A stretch of DNA of 60,019 nt, filler included. It is 7 parts of 7 records of this genome, joined end to end, with 100 filler letters (N's around TTAATTAATTAA, not from the genome) between each part and the next. Parts side by side here need not be neighbours in the genome. Positions count along the whole stretch, not along the records: positions 12,950 to 21,400 come from SRR31156797_10187; 6 more parts are not named here. One strand, given 5' to 3'. The stretch's first letter is position 1. Each line of letters starts with the position of its first letter. The notes beneath the pieces are model-generated. The model made no database searches and had not been told where the DNA came from. It was given only the letters and a program-made list of their open reading frames with translations. The position numbers and the translations under genes were made by a program. This document shows, one piece after another, positions 12,850-27,353 of the stretch.

Positions 12850-12949
12850 NNNNNNNNNNNNNNNNNNNNNNNNNNNNNNNNNNNNNNNNNNNNTTAATTA
12901 ATTAANNNNNNNNNNNNNNNNNNNNNNNNNNNNNNNNNNNNNNNNNNNN
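12850..12949. other. Artificial contig linker
   Basis: N44-TTAATTAATTAA-N44 with stops in all frames; composition shifts across it. Confidence 0.98.
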
Positions 12950-12985
12950 GATAAATCCGGCGCCGCCGGTAACCAGTATTTTCAT
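12950..12985 (-). CDS. NAD-dependent epimerase/dehydratase, 5' fragment (contig edge)
   Basis: Manual translation MKILVTGGAGFI preceded by AGGAG RBS. Confidence 0.8.
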
Positions 12986-13125
12986 TTTAGAGTCTCCTGC
13001 GTCTCAACTGGGGCCGCATATTCCCGTTTGTGGTTGATGAATCACAAAGAAGAAGAGCAGACTAGCAAGGCATAAAGCGAGGGTCAAGAAATAATCAACA
13101 GCCCGGATACCGGGCCCATGGTCAT

Positions 13126-15480
13126 ATGGCGAGAAAAGGCGAAACAGACATGACTTACAACAATATTCTCAGTAAAATCGGCAATACCCCGCTGGTACCC
13201 ATTACCCGCCTTTCGTCCCACAATGATGTGGAGATACTGGCCAAATTGGAGGGATTTAACCCCGGTGGATCCATCAAGGACCGACCGGCCTTGAAAATGA
13301 TCGAAGAGGCCGAAAAAACGGGCGCATTGAAAAAAGGGAAGATCATTCTGGAAGCGACCAGTGGCAACACGGGGATCGGTCTGGCCATGGTGGCCGCCGT
13401 CAAGGGATATGATATCTTATTAACCATGTCCGAAGCGGTCAGTGAAGAACGGGTTAAGATCCTTGCGGCCCTGGGAGCTAAAATAGAATTTACCCCGGCA
13501 CACCTGGGAACCGATGGCGCCATTGAACATGTCTATAACCTGGCCCGGGAAAATCCTGAAAAATTCTGGCTGGCCGATCAGTTTAACAATGTCGCCAACT
13601 GGATGGCCCATTATGAAAGCACCGCCATGGAAATATGGGAGCAAACGGAAGGGCATCTAGACGCCATTGTGGCCACCATGGGAACCACCGGCACCCTGAT
13701 GGGAATTTCCAGGCGGTTCAAGGAGTTGGATCCATCCGTTCAAATCATCGGCGTGGAACCGTATCTGGGGCACAAGATCCAGGGGCTCAAAAACATGAAA
13801 GAGTCCTACCAGCCGGGCATTTTTGAAAAGGAGAGAGCAGACCGGATTATCAAAATTGAAGACGAAGACGCCTTTGAAACCGCCCGAATGCTGGCCCGGA
13901 AAGAAGGGATTTTTGTGGGGATGAGTTCCGGGGCCGCCATGGCGGTGGCCCTTAAGGTGGCCCGAAAGATGGATCGGGGCCGCATTGTGGTTATTCTGGC
14001 CGACGGCGGCGAGAGATATCTCAGTACGCCTCTGTTCATGGCCAGAAAGAAATCAGGACTCCGCGTATACAATACCATGACCCGCAAAAAAGAGGATTTT
14101 GTCCCCGTAAAAGAGAACCATGTCACCCTCTATTCCTGTGGTCCCACCCTTTGCCAGGTCATTGATATCGTACAATGCCGGCGCCTGCTTTTCTCCGACC
14201 TGATCAGCCGCTATTTGACCTTCAAAAGGTATGAAGTGACCCACATCATGAATGTGACGGACCTGGACGACCGCACCATTGAGGGGGCTCAAAAGGCCGG
14301 TGTTTCCCTTAAAGAGTTTACGGATATGTTTTACAATTCTTTCATGACGGATCTGGACAGCCTAAACATCGTAAAGGCCTCCCAATACCCACGGCCCAGC
14401 GAACATGTGGACGACATGATAGCGCTGACCCAGACCCTTCTGGAAAAGGGATATGCCTATGAAAAGCTACGTTCCATATACTTTGATATCTCCAGGTTCA
14501 AAGACTACGGAAAACTCTCCAACGTTGACCTCAATAAAATCAGAATCGGCAAAACCGTCGATCTGGACCAATATGAAAAAGAAAACCCCAAAGATTTTAC
14601 CCTGTTGAAAAGATCCACCCTCAGCGAACTGAAAACCGGCATTTTCTTTAAGACGAAATGGGGAAATGTACGGCCGGGATGGCACCTAGAGTGTGCCACC
14701 ATTGCCCTCAAAACCCTCGGGCCCACTCACGACATACACACCAGCGGTGTGGCCCTGGCATTCCCCCACCACGAAAACGCCATCGCCATCAGCCAGGCCG
14801 CCACCGACAGACCCCTGGCCAATTACTGGCTTCACAATGAGCCGGTCATGTTCAATGGCCCCAATGCATTTGATAACGGTCACCTGACATTCAGGGATCT
14901 TCTGGCAAAAGGGTACACGGGAAGGGAGGTTCGATACTGGTTGCTCAGTCGACACTATCGGAAACCGATCTTCTTTTCCCAGACTAAGCTTTCCGCTGTC
15001 AGAAACACCATTGCCCATCTTGATAAATTTGTTCAGAAACTCTATTTTGCAAGACCGGTCTCGGTGAACCCCGATCTTGACCAAGTCATTTATGCTTTGA
15101 AACAAGGCTTTGTAACCGCCATGGACGATGATTTCAATGTGGCCGCAGCCCTGGCAGCCCTTTTTCGTTTTACCCGCGACATCAACCTGATGATGGATCA
15201 AAGGGGCCTGGCCGCTTCGGATCTGGGGAAAATACTGGCGGCTCTCGGGCGGATTAATTCGGTCCTGGGGATTATGGACCTGAAACCGGCTGATGCCGAC
15301 CCGGAAGTGGAGGCACTCATTGAAAAAAGGGAATTGGCCAGGAGTCGAAAAGACTGGTCCACGGCTGACCATCTCAGAGACGAAATGGAGAACATGGGGA
15401 TTGAGGTGATCGATACCCAGCACGGACCGCGATGGAGAAGAATTGAGCCACAAGGAGACATCGAAACGCCACTCGAATAG
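13126..15480 (+). CDS. Cysteine synthase (CysM/CysK) fused to a degenerate cysteinyl-tRNA synthetase-like domain; alternative start 13150
   Basis: N-half: KLEGFNPGGSIKDR, ATSGNTG, GTTGT. C-half: YNTMTRKKE, CGPT, NVTDLDD, RPGWHLEC, FPHHEN, MDDDFN and anticodon-binding tail; HIGH and KMSKS absent. Confidence 0.92.
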   Translation: MARKGETDMTYNNILSKIGNTPLVPITRLSSHNDVEILAKLEGFNPGGSIKDRPALKMIEEAEKTGALKKGKIILEATSGNTGIGLAMVAAVKGYDILLTMSEAVSEERVKILAALGAKIEFTPAHLGTDGAIEHVYNLARENPEKFWLADQFNNVANWMAHYESTAMEIWEQTEGHLDAIVATMGTTGTLMGISRRFKELDPSVQIIGVEPYLGHKIQGLKNMKESYQPGIFEKERADRIIKIEDEDAFETARMLARKEGIFVGMSSGAAMAVALKVARKMDRGRIVVILADGGERYLSTPLFMARKKSGLRVYNTMTRKKEDFVPVKENHVTLYSCGPTLCQVIDIVQCRRLLFSDLISRYLTFKRYEVTHIMNVTDLDDRTIEGAQKAGVSLKEFTDMFYNSFMTDLDSLNIVKASQYPRPSEHVDDMIALTQTLLEKGYAYEKLRSIYFDISRFKDYGKLSNVDLNKIRIGKTVDLDQYEKENPKDFTLLKRSTLSELKTGIFFKTKWGNVRPGWHLECATIALKTLGPTHDIHTSGVALAFPHHENAIAISQAATDRPLANYWLHNEPVMFNGPNAFDNGHLTFRDLLAKGYTGREVRYWLLSRHYRKPIFFSQTKLSAVRNTIAHLDKFVQKLYFARPVSVNPDLDQVIYALKQGFVTAMDDDFNVAAALAALFRFTRDINLMMDQRGLAASDLGKILAALGRINSVLGIMDLKPADADPEVEALIEKRELARSRKDWSTADHLRDEMENMGIEVIDTQHGPRWRRIEPQGDIETPLE

Positions 15481-15500
15481 CAGATATATCAAGGACAACC

Positions 15501-15884
15501 ATGCCCATATATGAATACGAACCCGTGGATTTAAATAAAACCTGCAATAAATGCAAGTATGGATTTGAATTCATTCAAAAAATTAACGATACACCCCTTG
15601 AAAATTGTCCGGATTGCGGACATGCTGTCAGGAAAATCATCTCCTGGTGCCGAGGGGCCGTCATGGAAACTTCCGAAGAACATTCACACATCAACCGGAA
15701 GATCGCTTCCTATGAAAAGGAAGGCATGTGGAGCCATGCGGCTGAACTGGCGGATACCCATGCGGAAAAGATCAAAGACAACCGACTGAAAATGAGGGCC
15801 ATCGATAACTACGAAAAAGCCGGATACAATGCGGGAACATTGGAGAAACATGCCAAAACGGATAATGCCGCAGTTGAAAAATAA
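15501..15884 (+). CDS. FmdB-family zinc ribbon protein with C-terminal extension
   Basis: MPIYEYE, CxxC..FE, CPDCG. Confidence 0.82.
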   Translation: MPIYEYEPVDLNKTCNKCKYGFEFIQKINDTPLENCPDCGHAVRKIISWCRGAVMETSEEHSHINRKIASYEKEGMWSHAAELADTHAEKIKDNRLKMRAIDNYEKAGYNAGTLEKHAKTDNAAVEK

Positions 15885-15927
15885 TGCGGATTCAGACGCT
15901 TTTTATCCATAAAAGGGAGGTTTTCTT

Positions 15928-16134
15928 ATGAAAATTGAAGAATTGATCGCCGGAAAAAAGGATGGTCAGAAAGTTCAGGTTGGGGGCGTTTCCCTACCGA
16001 TTTCCGCCTTGAAACAATTCATGGACGAAGGATATACTCACCTGAAACCTTATCAGACGGAAAAAACCTTCTCATTCTGGGGCAAAGCCTGTACAGGCTG
16101 TTTTTCTGAACAGGAGATCGTCAACAGGCCGTAA
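15928..16134 (+). CDS. Small hypothetical protein with CxxC
   Basis: GGGAGG RBS; WGKACTGC. Confidence 0.7.
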   Translation: MKIEELIAGKKDGQKVQVGGVSLPISALKQFMDEGYTHLKPYQTEKTFSFWGKACTGCFSEQEIVNRP

Positions 16135-17848
16135 TCAGGATGTATTTGCTGTATTTCGCATCCAAAGCATCGGTTGGTACAATTTCCATCTCATGGCTGA
16201 AATCCCGCCAGGTCCGGGCCAAGGCGTCTTTCAGGTTTTTTGAACAGCTGTATGACGAGTCCGGATCCGGCATCTCAAATGTCTTCAGGAACCGCTCCTC
16301 AAAACCGAACATGCGGTACGGAGGCTCGGTATCCCCTGCCCTGAGAAGGCTTAAAAAGCCTCTCGCCTGCTTGAGGGAGACCGCGTTGAAACCGGGCTCC
16401 AGATCCAGCAGTTGCCGAGCCCACAAGGTGAACAACAGCTGGTAATAAATTAAATCAATGGCCTCGGAATCCGAAGGATCCAGGGGGTATGTCTTTGTCA
16501 GCTCGGCCATGAGGCTGTCCAGTCCCTCCAGGAGGTCCAGGATCTCAGTTGTGGCGGACAAATCGGACATGGACTGAAAATGCCTGAAGCCGCTTATTGA
16601 TTCACCTCCGCAATAATAAAGGGGTCTTTTTTTCAAAATGCCCGTGAGAGCCCCCCCCCATTGTTGTCCCCAGAAGGACGGTTCCAGCCCTGCTTCTTGA
16701 AACCAGCAGTTCTTCAACCACCGCTCCGTTTTCCATTTCAGACTTAAAGCCAACCCGAAACCCGCACGAAACAGGGATTCGAGGCTGTTCATCCTGAGTA
16801 GGTTTTCAGCGGTGTTTAGATCTTCATGGCCCCACTCATTATGACACCGCTCTTTCAAAATCATGTTCAGGTACCCGGCCGCCTGCACCTGAATTTCCTG
16901 AAGATTGTCCATATCCCAGTTTGAAAGACCTTCAGCCGATAGAATCTGGTTGCAAAGGCCGGCAAATTCCAGACGGATGCGATCCAGAAGTTTTTCATCT
17001 GACAGATTCGAGATGGTTTTCGTTAAAAGGTCCCGGCCCTGGAGGGTCTGAAGCGGCCACCGGGGAACAAGGCCCGCATCTTCCAGGCTGGCGGTGGCCC
17101 AGGCGTTTGCGTCTTGTTTTTTCGTTTTCAAACGCTCCGGGTTCAGCGGAGCGTAAACCGCCATGGCCTCCTCCCGGGGAAGAAAGCCATGCTCCGCCAG
17201 TCGAACGTTTCTCATGCGGTACATGTCCTCTTCAAGTTCCGCAGGCAGTATGCCCGCCAATCCCGTCAGAAGTGACTGGTATTTAAGGGTGTCCTCCCGG
17301 GCAATGGTTCGCAGTAATGCTTCAATGGTTTCCCGCTGATCTTCGCGTACGGGCCGAATGTAGAAAAATCCGTCAATGGTGAAAAAACCGGGTCCCGCCT
17401 CAAACGTTTCCTCATCTTCATTCTTCACTTCCACAATAATGCTTCGATAGAGGAAATAGTAAGTCAGTCCCTCCTGATCGGAAATGAGCCATTGTATAAA
17501 TCGCTCCGGATCGGCTGTCAACAGCCGCTGCATCCATCGGCTCGTACGGTTCAGTTCCAGGCGATCCTTCTGCCAGGAGTCCACATCAAAAAGATATTGC
17601 CATTGATCACGTGAGGCCAATTTCAGCAATTCCAGGGATCCGTCCGCACCCACCTTGTTGGTCAGCCAGAAAAAATCCTCGCTGGACATGGTCCGGATCA
17701 AACGGGGGCAATCAGGGTGCTTTAAAACCTTGTTCAGTGCCTTATCACCTGAAAGGCTGTGCAGACCGTCAAAAAATGCACCATCCAGGGGTAAAACCCC
17801 ATGACCGTTTCCAATATCCTGTCCGTTTCCCTGCGGCCGATTTTCCAA
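16121..17848 (-). CDS. DUF6178-like conserved protein
   Basis: 575-aa ORF with DVDSWQKDR and ELEEDMYRMRNVRLAEHGF segments recalled from this deltaproteobacterial family; GAGGAG upstream of TTG start. Confidence 0.65.
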   Translation of the reverse strand: MENRPQGNGQDIGNGHGVLPLDGAFFDGLHSLSGDKALNKVLKHPDCPRLIRTMSSEDFFWLTNKVGADGSLELLKLASRDQWQYLFDVDSWQKDRLELNRTSRWMQRLLTADPERFIQWLISDQEGLTYYFLYRSIIVEVKNEDEETFEAGPGFFTIDGFFYIRPVREDQRETIEALLRTIAREDTLKYQSLLTGLAGILPAELEEDMYRMRNVRLAEHGFLPREEAMAVYAPLNPERLKTKKQDANAWATASLEDAGLVPRWPLQTLQGRDLLTKTISNLSDEKLLDRIRLEFAGLCNQILSAEGLSNWDMDNLQEIQVQAAGYLNMILKERCHNEWGHEDLNTAENLLRMNSLESLFRAGFGLALSLKWKTERWLKNCWFQEAGLEPSFWGQQWGGALTGILKKRPLYYCGGESISGFRHFQSMSDLSATTEILDLLEGLDSLMAELTKTYPLDPSDSEAIDLIYYQLLFTLWARQLLDLEPGFNAVSLKQARGFLSLLRAGDTEPPYRMFGFEERFLKTFEMPDPDSSYSCSKNLKDALARTWRDFSHEMEIVPTDALDAKYSKYILITAC

Positions 17849-18254
17849 TTTTCCACTCCTCGTTCATAATTTTTCCGATCATATCCCGGAACCGTTTATG
17901 GGGTCGACTCATTTTCCCCTGAACCGTGATGCTCCATCGCTGAACCGTAAACGGTTACGCTTGACAAATAAGGGGAATGGACGCAAAAATCGACACAACC
18001 CCTACGGTCCGTGTAATTTTATGTCATTTTGACGAGAAAGGCCATGGCAATCTCACCGAATCCCGGGGTGATCCATTGTGCCATGATACCTTCAAGGAGA
18101 TGTTTTCGCGGATATGGCAGCATCCATGCAACACACGGCAATAAAAATAAGGATACTGAACAAGGATCTGCGCATCATCAGCCGCATGAGCGACCGAAAA
18201 CATGAGCCCAAACAGGTATGCTGAGAATTTTGTAAACCGTGCATTCCCCCTTTC

Positions 18255-20669
18255 TCACCCATCATTGCTTTTGCCAACGTTCGAATGCCGCCGCAAAACA
18301 TCGGCCAGATTCTGGAAGCGGATCGGTTTGGGAAGATAATCGTCCATCCCCGCCTCCAGGCACCGTTCTCGATCGCCCTGCATGGCATTGGCCGTCATGG
18401 CGATAATCGGTACATGCCGACCGGTTTCCTTTTCAGCCTTCCGAATCCCGGCTGTAGCCGCCAGCCCATCCATTACAGGCATTTGAACATCCATTAAAAC
18501 CACATGGTAAGACTCTTTTGCAAGCCTCTCAACCGCCTCTCTGCCGTTGGGCACAACGGTCACCCGGTGACCCATTTTTTCCAGAACACGCATGGCGAGC
18601 TTTTGATTCACCGGGTTGTCTTCCGCCAGGAGTACATTGATGGAGACGGCTTTTTGACTGAACATGGAAGGATCCTCATCCCCTTTGCGTGGAACTTCCA
18701 AGTCAAGACCGTGTACACGCAAAACAGCATCCATCAAATCCGACGGTGTAATGGGTTTGGCCAGGCAAAAGGAGACCCCCGCATCACGACAGGCATCAAA
18801 ATGACGGGTTTTTGCACCGGGGGGAAGAATGAAGATCATGGGCAGATTGAGCTCAGGGTCCCACAGGATTTCCTCGAGGGCCCCCCGGCTCTTTTCATTA
18901 AAAAGCGTCGCATCCAGTATAAAAAAGTCAAAGGGGTGTCCCTTTGCCACAGCGCCCCTCACCAACGACAGTGCGGAAGAGATATCCTCGCAAACAGTGG
19001 GTGACATTCGCCAGTGACGAAACAGTTCCTCATAGACACGGCTCGATTTGGGGTTTCCTTCCGCCACCAGAACCGATGACCTTTCAAGCTTTCGCATGAA
19101 GGCGGGTATCGCTTTCGGCGCGCCCGCTTCTTCAACCTCAAACGGTATGGTGAAAAAGAAAGTCGCCCCGTACCCCTCCCGGCTTTCAAGCCATATCTTG
19201 CCGCCCATAATTTCCACCAGGTGCTTGGTAATGGCCAGCCCCAACCCGGTACCGCCGAATATTCTCGTGGTAAAACTGTCGGCCTGGGCGAATGCTTCAA
19301 AAATCATGGCCTGTTTTTCAGGCGCAATTCCGATACCGGTATCCTCAACGGAAAATTTCAGGTTCACGTGATCTTTTGCCGCTTCTGCACCGGAAAATAT
19401 TACCCCGTCTTCCATTACCGTACCGATTTCCACCTTAATTTCGCCCTTTTCGGTAAATTTGACGGCATTGCCCACAAGATTTACAATGATCTGGTTGAGT
19501 CGCTCAGGATCCCCCATGAGTTTTTCCGGTATGCCCGGATGTTCATGGTATACCAGTTCCAACCCCTTTTTCTGAGCCCGAAGGGAAAGCATCTTCAAGG
19601 TGTTCCGAAGACGGTCACCCATATTGAAGGTAATCTTTTCAAGCCCCAGTTTGCCCGCTTCTATTTTTGAAAAATCCAGAATATCATTGATGATGTTTAA
19701 AAGGGAAAAGGCAGAGGATTTGACGGTTTTGAGATAATCCAACTGCTCTTCATTCAGTTCCGTATCCAGCACCAGTTCCGTCATGCCCACGATAGCGTTC
19801 ATGGGGGTTCTGATTTCATGACTCATATTGGCGAGGAACTCGCTTTTGGCCCGGTTGGCGGCCTCAGCGGCCTCAATGGCTTTTTCCAGCGCTTCCGCCG
19901 ATTTTTTCTGTTCCGTAATATCCTGTTTGATGGCAATAAAATGGGTGATTTCCTTTTTTGAGTTTAAAACAGGGGTAATGGTCTGCATTTCCAGATAGGT
20001 GTTTCCATCTTTTTTTCGGTTGATAATTTCTCCCTCCCACACATGTCCCGAAAGAATCGTCTGCCAGAGGTTCTGATAATATGCATCGTCATGTTCGCCC
20101 GATTGAAGAATTTCAATTGGATTCCCGAGGATTTCCGATGAATCATATCCGGTCAGACGGGTAAAGGCGTTATTTATCCAGATGACCCGTCCCCTTCGAT
20201 CCGTTATCACGATGGCATTGGCGGCGGCCTGTAGCGCAATGCTCTGTACCCTGACCTGTTCCAGCTCCCTGGTTTCACTCATATCCCGAAGAACAATAAC
20301 CGCGGAATGTTCACCGCCGGAAAATTCCACATATTCACCTTCAAACTCGATAAAAAGGGAGCCGCGAGGTTTATGAATCTCATAATAGCCCTTCACATCC
20401 GTCCGGTTTTTCAGCACCTTTTGGACCGGATGTGCCGCCCGGTGAAGCTGAAGTCCATGTTCCCTTAAGGGCATGACTTCGGTGAGCGGTTTGCCCAGAA
20501 TCGTGATATGGATAACCCCCAGCAGCCGGTCAAAAGACTTGTTGCACCATTGAATCAACCCTTTTTCGTCTGTCCAGACAATGGCATCGTTAATGGCCCC
20601 CAGGGCGATTTCCATCTTTCCCAAGGTGCTTCGAAGGGCATTGAGCTGCTCGGAAACATTTGAATCCAT
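18255..20669 (-). CDS. Cytoplasmic hybrid histidine kinase (PAS-PAS-HisKA-HATPase-REC-REC)
   Basis: SHEIRTP H-box, NAVKF, DTGIG, GTGLGL, MDVQMP; start placed at ATG 20669 after GGAGG RBS. Confidence 0.93.
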   Translation of the reverse strand: MDSNVSEQLNALRSTLGKMEIALGAINDAIVWTDEKGLIQWCNKSFDRLLGVIHITILGKPLTEVMPLREHGLQLHRAAHPVQKVLKNRTDVKGYYEIHKPRGSLFIEFEGEYVEFSGGEHSAVIVLRDMSETRELEQVRVQSIALQAAANAIVITDRRGRVIWINNAFTRLTGYDSSEILGNPIEILQSGEHDDAYYQNLWQTILSGHVWEGEIINRKKDGNTYLEMQTITPVLNSKKEITHFIAIKQDITEQKKSAEALEKAIEAAEAANRAKSEFLANMSHEIRTPMNAIVGMTELVLDTELNEEQLDYLKTVKSSAFSLLNIINDILDFSKIEAGKLGLEKITFNMGDRLRNTLKMLSLRAQKKGLELVYHEHPGIPEKLMGDPERLNQIIVNLVGNAVKFTEKGEIKVEIGTVMEDGVIFSGAEAAKDHVNLKFSVEDTGIGIAPEKQAMIFEAFAQADSFTTRIFGGTGLGLAITKHLVEIMGGKIWLESREGYGATFFFTIPFEVEEAGAPKAIPAFMRKLERSSVLVAEGNPKSSRVYEELFRHWRMSPTVCEDISSALSLVRGAVAKGHPFDFFILDATLFNEKSRGALEEILWDPELNLPMIFILPPGAKTRHFDACRDAGVSFCLAKPITPSDLMDAVLRVHGLDLEVPRKGDEDPSMFSQKAVSINVLLAEDNPVNQKLAMRVLEKMGHRVTVVPNGREAVERLAKESYHVVLMDVQMPVMDGLAATAGIRKAEKETGRHVPIIAMTANAMQGDRERCLEAGMDDYLPKPIRFQNLADVLRRHSNVGKSNDG

Positions 20670-20700
20670 TACAATCCTCCCGCGAAAGGGGTGACGCTGT

Positions 20701-21051
20701 TCAAGCAATATTCTGAATGGACGCGGCAAAAACCCATCTGCCCTTTTCCTTAAATGCGGTGATGAAGTGTCTTGCGGGCTTTTCCCCGCCGTCACCGGAT
20801 ACAATATGAAGGTCCAGGGATTGTTCAAGGATTGTTGCTTTCTCAGTTGTCAAAAATCGGGAAAAGCCCATATGGTGAGCATTTCGAAGCCCTTCGGGGA
20901 TAATTTCCGTCAACATTTTACCCTTGAGCTTTTCTCTGGTCCATCCGTAAGCATCTTCAAATGCGGCATTAATATCCTGAATAATGCCGTCTTGATCAAC
21001 TACCACCACCGGATCGATTTTGTTGGCCAGAATTTCATGAAATTTCGTCAT
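20701..21051 (-). CDS. Stand-alone PAS domain protein
   Basis: DPVVVVDQDG..INAAFE..GW...L.GK; immediately upstream of the kinase. Confidence 0.85.
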   Translation of the reverse strand: MTKFHEILANKIDPVVVVDQDGIIQDINAAFEDAYGWTREKLKGKMLTEIIPEGLRNAHHMGFSRFLTTEKATILEQSLDLHIVSGDGGEKPARHFITAFKEKGRWVFAASIQNIA

Positions 21052-21400
21052 TTCCGTATCCTTTCAAATGGAGGTCGCTTCTGTTGGGGCCTCCCATGTT
21101 CATACTACACAACATCTTCGGAAAATTCAAAAATGAATTTGCGCATTCCCCGTTTCACATTCATGGCTTCCCCCAAAACTGCGGTGGCAGGAGCCCCCCA
21201 GAACCAAAAAAAATCCCTATTTCATTAAAGAATTTACTTGACATTTTTTCGATTTTAAATACCATCCTGAATAATAGCTATTTTTTCCATACAAACCTTG
21301 AACAATCCGCCAGAGGTTTTCATATGGAGCATCCCATCAAACTCTGCTTGTTCCGCTCCCCGTAAGACCCGTCTTTCCCGTGGGGAGCGAGAACCTTTAA

Positions 21401-21500
21401 NNNNNNNNNNNNNNNNNNNNNNNNNNNNNNNNNNNNNNNNNNNNTTAATTAATTAANNNNNNNNNNNNNNNNNNNNNNNNNNNNNNNNNNNNNNNNNNNN
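21401..21500. other. Artificial contig linker
   Basis: N44-TTAATTAATTAA-N44. Confidence 0.98.
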
Positions 21501-21611
21501 AGACAAAAGAGGAGTGTCCAACTCCTCAAAATAAAAACTATTCATCTTAGTACACTTCTTGCATATAAAAAAATGCTATCATAAAAACAAAAAAAGAAAG
21601 TATCTTAATCC

Positions 21612-27253: not shown

Positions 27254-27353
27254 NNNNNNNNNNNNNNNNNNNNNNNNNNNNNNNNNNNNNNNNNNNNTTA
27301 ATTAATTAANNNNNNNNNNNNNNNNNNNNNNNNNNNNNNNNNNNNNNNNNNNN
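27254..27353. other. Artificial contig linker
   Basis: N44-TTAATTAATTAA-N44. Confidence 0.98.

Follow-up and report, generated by a model that had tools for sequence, protein, structure and literature searches.

The DNA analysed here is a stretch of 60,019 nucleotides (the window), in which one contig, SRR31156797_10187, carries an open reading frame (ORF) whose product joins a cysteine synthase to the body of a cysteinyl-tRNA synthetase (CysRS). A sequence-only reading of this ORF had described an intact cysteine synthase fused, without interruption, to a full-length CysRS body with degenerate catalytic motifs, and had suggested that this body is a pseudo-synthetase repurposed to bind cysteine and/or tRNA-Cys. 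We followed up this description by profile searches, alignments, genome surveys, phylogeny and structure prediction. As far as its residues allow one to judge, the active site of the CysM type is intact and the ATP-handling elements of class I synthetases have been lost, and the protein almost certainly charges no tRNA. The features of the gene and of its contig are collected in Table 1.

Table 1. Features of the fusion gene and of the contig that carries it, in window coordinates.
Feature	Position	Strand	Remarks
Contig with the fusion	12950..21400		8.45 kb, about 50% G+C; N-runs and TTAATTAATTAA linker at either end
NAD-dependent epimerase-type gene, divergent	12950..12985	-	First 12 codons, cut by the contig end; reverse-strand reading MKILVTGGAGFI
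Fusion ORF	13126..15480	+	Uninterrupted, 784 residues; span includes the stop codon
Likely true start, M9	13150	+	Fits homologue N-termini better than M1
CysM-type PLP cysteine synthase domain	13171..14004	+	Residues 16-293; PALP, E 1.6e-74
PLP lysine K51	13276-13278	+	Alignment to CysM 2bhs/2jc3
TSGNT (residues 78-82) and GTTGT (residues 186-190)	CysM domain	+	
K222, aligned with E. coli CysM R210	13789-13791	+	Alignment to CysM 2bhs/2jc3
Inter-domain linker	14032..14058	+	Residues about 303-311; alignment, pLDDT
CysRS-derived catalytic body, ATP-site motifs degenerate	14098..15003	+	Residues 325-626; tRNA-synt_1e, E 2.8e-80
Cys338, equivalent of E. coli Cys28 (zinc ligand)	14137..14139	+	Alignment; C in 40/45
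HIGH position, reads DIVQ	14164..14175	+	Residues 347-350; alignment
Cys523, equivalent of E. coli Cys209 (zinc ligand)	14692..14694	+	Alignment; C in 40/45
His548 to Ala552 (HHENA)	14767..14781	+	His548 is the E. coli His234 equivalent; Ala552 at the last Glu of HHENE
KMSKS-loop remnant PNAFD	14860..14874	+	Residues 579-583; shortened, hypervariable across the fusion family
DALR_2 helical domain (662-716) and CysS_C anticodon-binding domain (723-771)	15109..15438	+	Pfam
Zn_ribbon_8 (FmdB-type) small protein	15501..15884	+	PF09723, E 1.6e-12; 20 nt downstream of the fusion
DUF6178 protein	16121..17848	-	PF19676, E 6e-147

The protein shows four Pfam domains, in the order PALP, tRNA-synt_1e, DALR_2 and CysS_C, the last of which (PF23493) scores 30.5 bits against a cut-off of 23; matches of this strength are beyond chance. 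The N-terminal half aligns over its whole length with the CysM enzymes of Salmonella and E. coli (best PDB matches 2jc3 and 2bhs; E 2e-76), and its pyridoxal phosphate (PLP) motifs are complete. Against NCBIfam profiles, the protein exceeds the cut-off of TIGR01136, the cysK/M subfamily profile (373.3 versus 344.15 bits), and misses that of TIGR01138, the cysM equivalog (374.3 versus 394.2 bits). By profile score and active-site motifs, the fusion belongs to the CysK/M subfamily. It resembles the solved CysM structures in its PLP motifs and in the basic residue K222 at the R210 position, and departs from them in falling below the equivalog cut-off and in being fused to a 470-residue dead synthetase.

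The CysRS half matches E. coli CysRS (1li5) over its full length (E 3.7e-83). Moreover, the whole protein scores 376.8 bits against the cysS equivalog TIGR00435, whose cut-off is 340, so that annotation pipelines name the fusion a cysteine--tRNA ligase. Motifs were called by residue-by-residue alignment to three solved CysRS, 1li5 among them. The HIGH and KMSKS elements, by which class I synthetases bind ATP, are both gone: DIVQ stands at the HIGH position, and GPNAFDN, a loop two residues shorter than in the solved enzymes, takes the place of KMSKS. Likewise, DIHGGG has become DIHTSG, LWK has become LLK, HHENE has become HHENA and DDKIIK has become DDRTIE. These are the changes that the sequence-only reading had listed, and the coordinates it gave for DIVQ and PNAFD agree with the translation. 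Its further statement that the zinc site is kept holds in part. The fourth zinc ligand of the E. coli enzyme, which we take to be Glu238 (the last Glu of HHENE), with His234 presumably contributing as well, aligns with Ala552 of the fusion. At the other positions Cys338, Cys523 and His548 are all present, the two cysteines corresponding to Cys28 and Cys209, which are named as zinc ligands of E. coli CysRS in passages of PMC10655014.

The fusion thus shares with canonical CysRS (1li5/1u0b) the domain order, the fold, three zinc positions and the anticodon-domain invariants, but is without HIGH, KMSKS, HGGG, the Trp of LWK and the lysines of KIIK, and lies across a branch with 99% support from canonical enzymes, those of its own host genomes included. 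By the defining features tested on its sequence, it stands outside the working CysRS family, because HIGH and KMSKS are missing and it appears to have no housekeeping role as a synthetase. Two other identities were tried and rejected. The mycothiol ligase MshC (TIGR03447) was ruled out by score (159.5 versus 485.1 bits), and a persulfide synthase of the CARS type by the aligned PLP lysines, with K73 corresponding to R383, K76 to E386 and KMSK being deleted.

The same architecture is widespread in the phylum. In an even sample of 401 genomes from the phylum of the relative G001, 158 contain a full-length collinear match to the fusion (E<=1e-150, 45-87% identity), and PF00291 and PF01406 occur together in each of the 120 database proteins listed (the best matches, with 68-92% identity and 712-791 aa). 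The closest proteins among these matches come from metagenome-assembled genomes (MAGs) of Desulfobacterota (up to 92% identity) and from strain NaphS2 (86%), in line with the statement of the sequence-only reading that such fusions are annotated in Desulfobacterota. Where the 120 proteins are named, they are called cysteine--tRNA ligase or cysteinyl-tRNA synthetase, a label that is probably wrong. About 20 of the fusion matches listed for the phylum sample contain one in-frame stop (TGA, TAG or TAA), and that in G087 contains two TGA; these may reflect sequencing errors, copies that are broken, or matches that extend beyond the end of the gene.

Motif columns were inspected in 121 close sequences, in 20 fused loci with 11 unfused controls, in 20 distant fusions and in 50%-cluster representatives, and were counted in an alignment of 45 sequences (A1) made up of the query, 16 proteins chosen to cover the range of identities and 28 locus-derived ORFs. 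In A1, the PLP lysine K51, the Asn-loop residue N81 and K222 are present in every sequence, and the TSGNT loop is invariant across the fusion family. On the synthetase side, KMSKS is found in none of the 45 and a K[MIL]S[RK] remnant in eight, HxG[HN] stands at the HIGH position in four, and the Trp of LWK is absent throughout, with Leu in 31 sequences and Phe in 14. The zinc positions C/C/H occur together in 39/45 sequences, and C/C/H plus Glu in 14/45; the His548 position holds His in 44, whereas position 552 varies (Glu in 16, Ala in 13, others in 16). Finally, R735, D748, R751 and D763 of the anticodon domain are each conserved in 45/45. The sequence-only reading had proposed this comparison of HIGH and KMSKS with the zinc site and the anticodon domain across homologous fusions.

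A column-wise comparison of 23 canonical CysRS with 34 degenerate fusions, in which a column counted as kept if at least 80% of the fusions hold the canonical residue, shows where this retention is concentrated. All six canonical-invariant columns of the anticodon-binding domain are kept, compared with 14/21 in the connective polypeptide (CP) insertion, 11/20 in the N-terminal Rossmann part with HIGH and 13/32 in the C-terminal Rossmann part with KMSKS, where the second Lys of KMSKS is retained in 3% of the 34 fusions. Over the C-terminal 230 residues, the fusions, down to the most degenerate among them, share in alignment the signature of true CysRS. In these hyper-degenerate fusions (P0126, which is the 775-aa 'cysteine synthase' of Desulfovibrio ferrophilus, P0128, P0130, L019 and L105) the zinc cysteines are lost too, while DFTLLKR, an RR pair and the anticodon-domain signature remain. 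The CP insertion spans residues 445-513 (nt about 14458-14664), and its invariants across the 45 sequences are Y445, Y452, F453, Y461, G462, Y483, K485, D490, F491, L493, R496, K503, G505 and G513. Of its residues, R496, L502, K503 and G505 are family-specific and lie within a stretch that most canonical CysRS do not have.

We also compared selection on the two halves. Ratios of nonsynonymous to synonymous substitution (dN/dS) were computed by the Nei-Gojobori method on codon alignments of the query with nine relatives and of four other pairs, two of which are synonymously saturated. The CysM half yields 0.04-0.09 and the CysRS-like core 0.04-0.075. Constraint on the core is thus as strong as on the enzyme half and speaks against decay of the dead domain, which supports the view that the CysRS-like body is a conserved pseudo-synthetase and no decaying copy. 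The sequence-only reading, which had proposed a pseudo-synthetase and had named neutral decay of this copy as the contrary outcome, is borne out on this point.

A maximum-likelihood tree of 61 CysRS-type domains (LG+G4; unrooted; branch support by the Shimodaira-Hasegawa-like approximate likelihood-ratio test, SH-aLRT, only), from which the close or truncated relatives L001-L005, L007-L009, L013, L015 and L020 were omitted, as were P0130 and also L121, which did not pass an ORF filter, places the degenerate fusions apart from canonical enzymes. A branch with 99% SH-aLRT separates all 34 degenerate fusions, together with three stand-alone or fragment forms, from 24 rows that comprise every canonical CysRS, the gene-pair CysRS, P0124 and P0143. 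The query pairs with NaphS2 (100%), and the housekeeping CysRS of fusion genomes group with Bacillota enzymes (100%). On these sequences, the dead domain is no recent copy of the host's own cysS. As the tree is unrooted, we claim no direction of change.

On the canonical side of this branch, P0124 is a 768-aa CysM-CysRS fusion from a Nanoarchaeota MAG with HIGN, LWK, HTGG and KMSKS all intact, and judged by these motifs it seems to be genuinely bifunctional. In MAGs of Bdellovibrionales, Moranbacteria, Woesearchaeota and Bathyarchaeia (loci L022, L023, L026, L027, L033 and L036), cysK is followed by an adjoining, separate cysS whose HIGN and KMSKS are canonical; in five of these six CysRS, the DDK motif is preceded by a common insert of 14 residues. 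Both P0124 and the gene pairs follow the domain or gene order of the fusion, but their motifs (HIGN, LWK, HTGG or HGGG, and KMSKS) are intact, they group with canonical CysRS, and they look like charging enzymes. There is also a stand-alone form of the dead domain without CysM, P0140 (468 aa), which heads a cluster of 58 members; its signatures read HIGL, DFTLMRR and KMSRS, and its contigs reach 12 kb.

The earlier reading had asked whether the genome has a second canonical cysS, and this was examined in relatives. Such a gene is present in each of five large fusion genomes (G001-G005, including NaphS2 and Desulfocarbo indianensis), scoring 560-577 bits where the fusion domain scores 351-385 bits. 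In the phylum sample, a canonical cysS (E<=1e-130) was found in 366/401 genomes, that is in 147/158 with the fusion and in 219/243 without it. The 35 genomes without a match comprise 20 that were listed, 14 derived from gaps in the list and one, G404, that was inferred. Five of the 11 fusion genomes lacking a match were re-examined, and all five have a separate cysS or contig-end fragments of one. In the genomes tested, and as far as their sequence tells, the fusion is never the sole CysRS.

The cysteine-biosynthetic context differs between large and small genomes. All five large genomes have at least one stand-alone cysK/M and a cysE-like gene of about 160 bits (cut-off 210.65), which adjoins cysK in three. 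In the phylum there are two cysE-like kinds, a canonical one of about 230-260 aa that exceeds the TIGR01172 cut-off in 86/401 genomes, and a second of 300-350 aa and 160-180 bits. Any cysE-like gene (E<=1e-35) occurs in 76/158 fusion genomes versus 187/243 others, and a canonical cysE (E<=1e-60, the 86 over cut-off) in 3/158 versus 83/243, giving a Fisher p of about 1.5e-17 that is uncorrected for relatedness and comes from genomes of which many are incomplete MAGs. No cysE match was obtained in ten small genomes, which measure 1.5-2.5 Mb and several of which include contigs of 1.6-2.5 Mb; five of them were searched directly, the only hit being one of 44 bits in G117, and five are absent from the phylum-wide list of cysE matches. 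In nine of these ten, the fusion is the only TIGR01136 match (E<=1e-30). Because it is the only CysK/M-type enzyme found there and no serine acetyltransferase was found, the fusion may be the housekeeping route to cysteine in several small genomes.

The neighbourhood of the gene offers little further guidance. The window consists of seven contigs joined by six linkers, each an N-run, TTAATTAATTAA and a second N-run, where TTAATTAATTAA is a six-frame stop. The joins flanking the fusion contig lie at 12850-12949 and 21401-21501 (TTAATTAATTAA at 12894 and 21445), outside the ORF, and further linkers are at 27298, 35703, 42170 and 54740. The G+C content is near 0.50 within the fusion contig, uniform across the ORF, and 0.23-0.33 in the adjoining pieces (about 0.26 to 0.51 across the pieces of the window), a spread pointing to a mixed bin or else to a draft that was concatenated. 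Since the contigs were simply joined, gene order across the linkers is meaningless, and nothing outside 12950-21400 is usable as context. Within the contig, the Zn_ribbon_8 gene may be co-transcribed with the fusion. Its cluster (c4) follows the fusion at 7 of 17 close or mid-distance loci and that of DUF6178 (c1) lies beside it at 11, in closer relatives only; the epimerase-type gene, syntenic in relatives, is PF01370. Altogether, these 17 loci show lineage-level synteny only (epimerases, a GroEL-type chaperonin, Zn_ribbon_8 and DUF6178), and at eight distant loci the neighbours are unrelated housekeeping genes (HhH-GPD, EamA, YkuD, MurJ, a tRNA U5-methyltransferase, a sigma-54 activator, thymidylate and adenylate kinases, Memo and an AIRS-type protein). 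No partner gene came to light at any of these loci. The fusion contig gave no Rfam match at E<=1 and nothing reliable in a promoter and terminator scan, the window contains no tRNA gene, and no tRNA-Cys or selC-type tRNA lies near the fusion in 16 neighbourhoods of related loci.

Structure prediction with AlphaFold2 from A1 gave a mean pLDDT (predicted local distance difference test) of 86.1 and a predicted TM score (pTM) of 0.73, with both halves confident. Confidence is low at the termini, in the linker (303-308), at 475-486 and in the former KMSKS loop (579-584), and falls below a pLDDT of 50 at 303-308 and 579-584. In the alignment, the linker comprises about five residues and is of near-constant length across the family. 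When the CysM half (9-304) and the dead CysRS half (309-776) were predicted as a complex, the best score was 0.31 against a mark of 0.32, which speaks neither for nor against a contact.

Taken together, the reading we favour, tentatively and at somewhat less than even confidence, is that of a cysteine synthase which in some lineages has a housekeeping role and which carries, within the same chain, a non-catalytic sensor of tRNA-Cys and/or cysteine comparable to HisZ or GCN2. The C-terminal two-thirds of the protein would be a dead CysRS retained as a ligand-binding module that senses the demand for cysteine, either by binding uncharged tRNA-Cys through the anticodon domain, or by binding cysteine at the zinc site, or both. 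In the ligand-bound state, this domain would tune the tethered PLP domain across the short linker and would thereby supply the feedback control that CysE gives in the classical pathway. We favour the sensor because it covers both conserved features, because HisZ and GCN2 provide precedent, and because lineages without CysE are also without the usual feedback point.

For the PLP domain, a free amino-acid acceptor appears probable; in solved O-acetylserine sulfhydrylases, the TSGNT loop clamps the free alpha-carboxylate. The missing cysE and the basic K222 are the reasons for which we consider that this acceptor may be O-phosphoserine instead of O-acetylserine. The CysM of M. tuberculosis is reportedly dependent on O-phosphoserine, and CysM-type enzymes are described in parts of PMC9855970 as accepting O-acetylserine or O-phosphoserine and larger sulfur donors.

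Both precedents are synthetase relatives without a charging function. HisZ is not known to have an anticodon-binding domain. GCN2, a eukaryotic protein, carries a dead HisRS-like domain fused to a kinase, binds many tRNAs and reads uncharged tRNA as a starvation signal. Sections of PMC9437257 and PMC9734150 describe HisZ, the HisRS paralogue that acts as regulatory subunit of the ATP phosphoribosyltransferase HisG, as devoid of adenylation activity and as mediating the inhibition of HisG by histidine. Like HisZ, as these sections portray it, the fused domain is derived from an aminoacyl-tRNA synthetase, has lost the adenylation motifs and is physically tied, here covalently, to the biosynthetic enzyme of the cognate amino acid; it differs in being class I, covalent and in possession of its anticodon domain, whereas HisZ is class II and a separate subunit, and regulation of the fusion would follow by analogy. 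With GCN2 it shares a dead synthetase domain and an effector enzyme in one polypeptide, but here the effector would be a biosynthetic enzyme and the domain stems from its cognate synthetase, and tRNA binding would again be expected by analogy.

Several observations weigh against a sensor. The argument for sensing by the dead synthetase is drawn throughout from conservation. The C-terminal part of the protein evolves faster than the core, with dN/dS of 0.09-0.17 in unsaturated pairs (the exception being L003-L009, at 0.038). Zinc ligands are incomplete in 6/45 members, including the D. ferrophilus protein, and sensing of cysteine can therefore not be universal. Furthermore, conservation within the dead domain is strongest in the CP insertion from Y445 to G513 with its DFTLLKR, which the sensor model leaves unexplained. 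The anticorrelation with cysE may come largely from phylogeny and incomplete MAGs, and large relatives carry the fusion alongside a cysE-like gene and a second cysK. No conserved neighbour pointing to regulation is seen in the 17 and eight loci compared. Finally, in the predicted structure, with a linker pLDDT below 50, a fixed contact between the halves is not established.

A more specific form of the sensor reading would have uncharged tRNA-Cys dock through its GCA anticodon and switch on a CysE-independent cysteine synthase, probably one using O-phosphoserine, as the main control of cysteine in many sulfate-reducing Desulfobacterota; so precise a proposal we regard as rather unlikely to hold in full.

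Among the explanations that dispense with a sensor, the body may be a structural fossil, in that a bifunctional CysM-CysRS ancestor lost charging once a second cysS had made charging redundant, with the body kept for folding, stability or oligomerisation of CysM and binding no ligand of consequence. The all-motif-intact P0124 and the adjacent canonical cysK-cysS pairs in MAGs of the candidate phyla radiation (CPR), DPANN, Bdellovibrionota and Bathyarchaeia fit such a history, as do the short linker and the fact that different lineages have lost different elements (zinc ligands, HIGH or KMSKS). However, P0124 lies among canonical CysRS in the tree and not beside the degenerate clade, the core is as constrained as the enzyme half, and the full retention of the anticodon columns even in the most degenerate members goes beyond what packing needs. 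The stand-alone cluster of P0140, moreover, implies that the domain is viable without covalent CysM. We consider the fossil unlikely on balance.

The dead domain could instead serve as a sulfur relay, its zinc-thiolate pocket and the cysteines C343 and C351 near the former HIGH carrying sulfide, persulfide or a thiol to or from the CysM site, for instance as cysteine persulfide in a sulfidic habitat. The C/C/H set and a family-specific Cys after the HIGH position (27/45) would suit this role, as would the invariant K222 and the acceptance by CysM-type enzymes of larger anionic sulfur donors than CysK takes, as given in parts of PMC9855970. Canonical CARS is also reported, in passages of PMC10655014, to form cysteine persulfide with PLP, but the PLP lysines given there for E. 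coli, in 73-KIIK-76 and 266-KMSK-269, correspond in the fusion to R383, E386 and a deleted loop. As the new cysteines are absent from many members and a relay leaves the retention of the anticodon domain unexplained, we give it only a slim chance.

That retention, and the short linker, would be accounted for by tRNA-dependent chemistry, in which the dead synthetase holds Sep-, Ser- or Cys-tRNA-Cys for conversion by the PLP domain in the manner of SepCysS, or for persulfidation of Cys-tRNA. SelA is one PLP enzyme that acts on aminoacyl-tRNA. SepCysS is another according to passages of PMC10655014, and unusual tRNA-Cys species in Desulfobacterota are described in parts of PMC5389517. The sequence-only reading had raised a SepCysS-like route, which our searches count against. 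SepRS exceeds its cut-off in none of the five large genomes and in one of the 401 (G077, which has no fusion), hence in 0/158 fusion genomes, and SepCysS exceeds its own in none of the five large ones. G077 is also without a canonical cysS match at E<=1e-130, as expected for a bacterium on the tRNA-dependent cysteine route. The PLP domain is of fold-type II (PALP), not fold-type I, with its invariant TSGNT loop, and a tRNA-Cys gene is found in 0/16 neighbourhoods. We thus hold chemistry on tRNA to be quite improbable.

Even less credit is due to the idea that the fusion is still a synthetase, charging tRNA-Cys or a special tRNA through non-standard residues, and that its database name is right. 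Its TIGR00435 score and the KMSRS-like loops (8/45) or HxG[HN] (4/45) of deep-branching members speak for it. However, the query and its clade have no HIGH, KMSKS or HGGG, their loop is shortened, KMSKS is found in none of the 45 sequences, a canonical cysS exists wherever tested, and the fusion domain falls about 200 bits short of the score that the housekeeping copy reaches in the same genome, which makes continued charging very improbable. An artefact of assembly or reading, in which a chimeric contig or a sequencing error joined two genes, might be suspected in a window of contigs of very different G+C, but the joins lie outside the ORF, G+C is uniform along it, and the collinear fusion recurs in the 158 genomes and both domains in the 120 proteins listed, so that this has already been refuted and its chance is negligible.

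We found no published description of a fusion of CysM with a dead CysRS in open full texts, subscription journals and supplements lying outside the search. The fusion is not mentioned in the main text of PMC5388404, PMC2922099 or PMC5389517, and the words 'cysteine synthase', 'CysK' and 'fusion' are absent from the main text of the last. The nearest published relative is CysRS* (Mukai et al., NAR 2017, PMC5389517), described in parts of that article as encoded in some Desulfobacterales downstream of selB* and beside the selC* tRNA-Cys, which it is proposed to charge. Like CysRS*, the fusion occurs in this phylum as an additional CysRS paralogue of genomes that also have a housekeeping enzyme. 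An identity with CysRS* is ruled out on what the article gives, as CysRS* has no anticodon domain, while the fusion has one, along with dead motifs, a CysM domain and no such tRNA within 16 loci (selB was not searched).

In summary, a protein that about four in ten of the genomes sampled from a major phylum of sulfate reducers encode carries the label of a cysteine--tRNA ligase. Genome-scale models that count the fusion as a second cysS, or that miss it as a cysteine synthase, would err. Beyond annotation, the fusion offers a clean case in which to ask whether, in bacteria, the synthesis of an amino acid is coupled directly to the charging of tRNA. If the protein is indeed gated by tRNA, the supply of cysteine would be set by the charging state of tRNA-Cys, and the fusion would be a bacterial counterpart of the GCN2 logic, acting on a biosynthetic enzyme.

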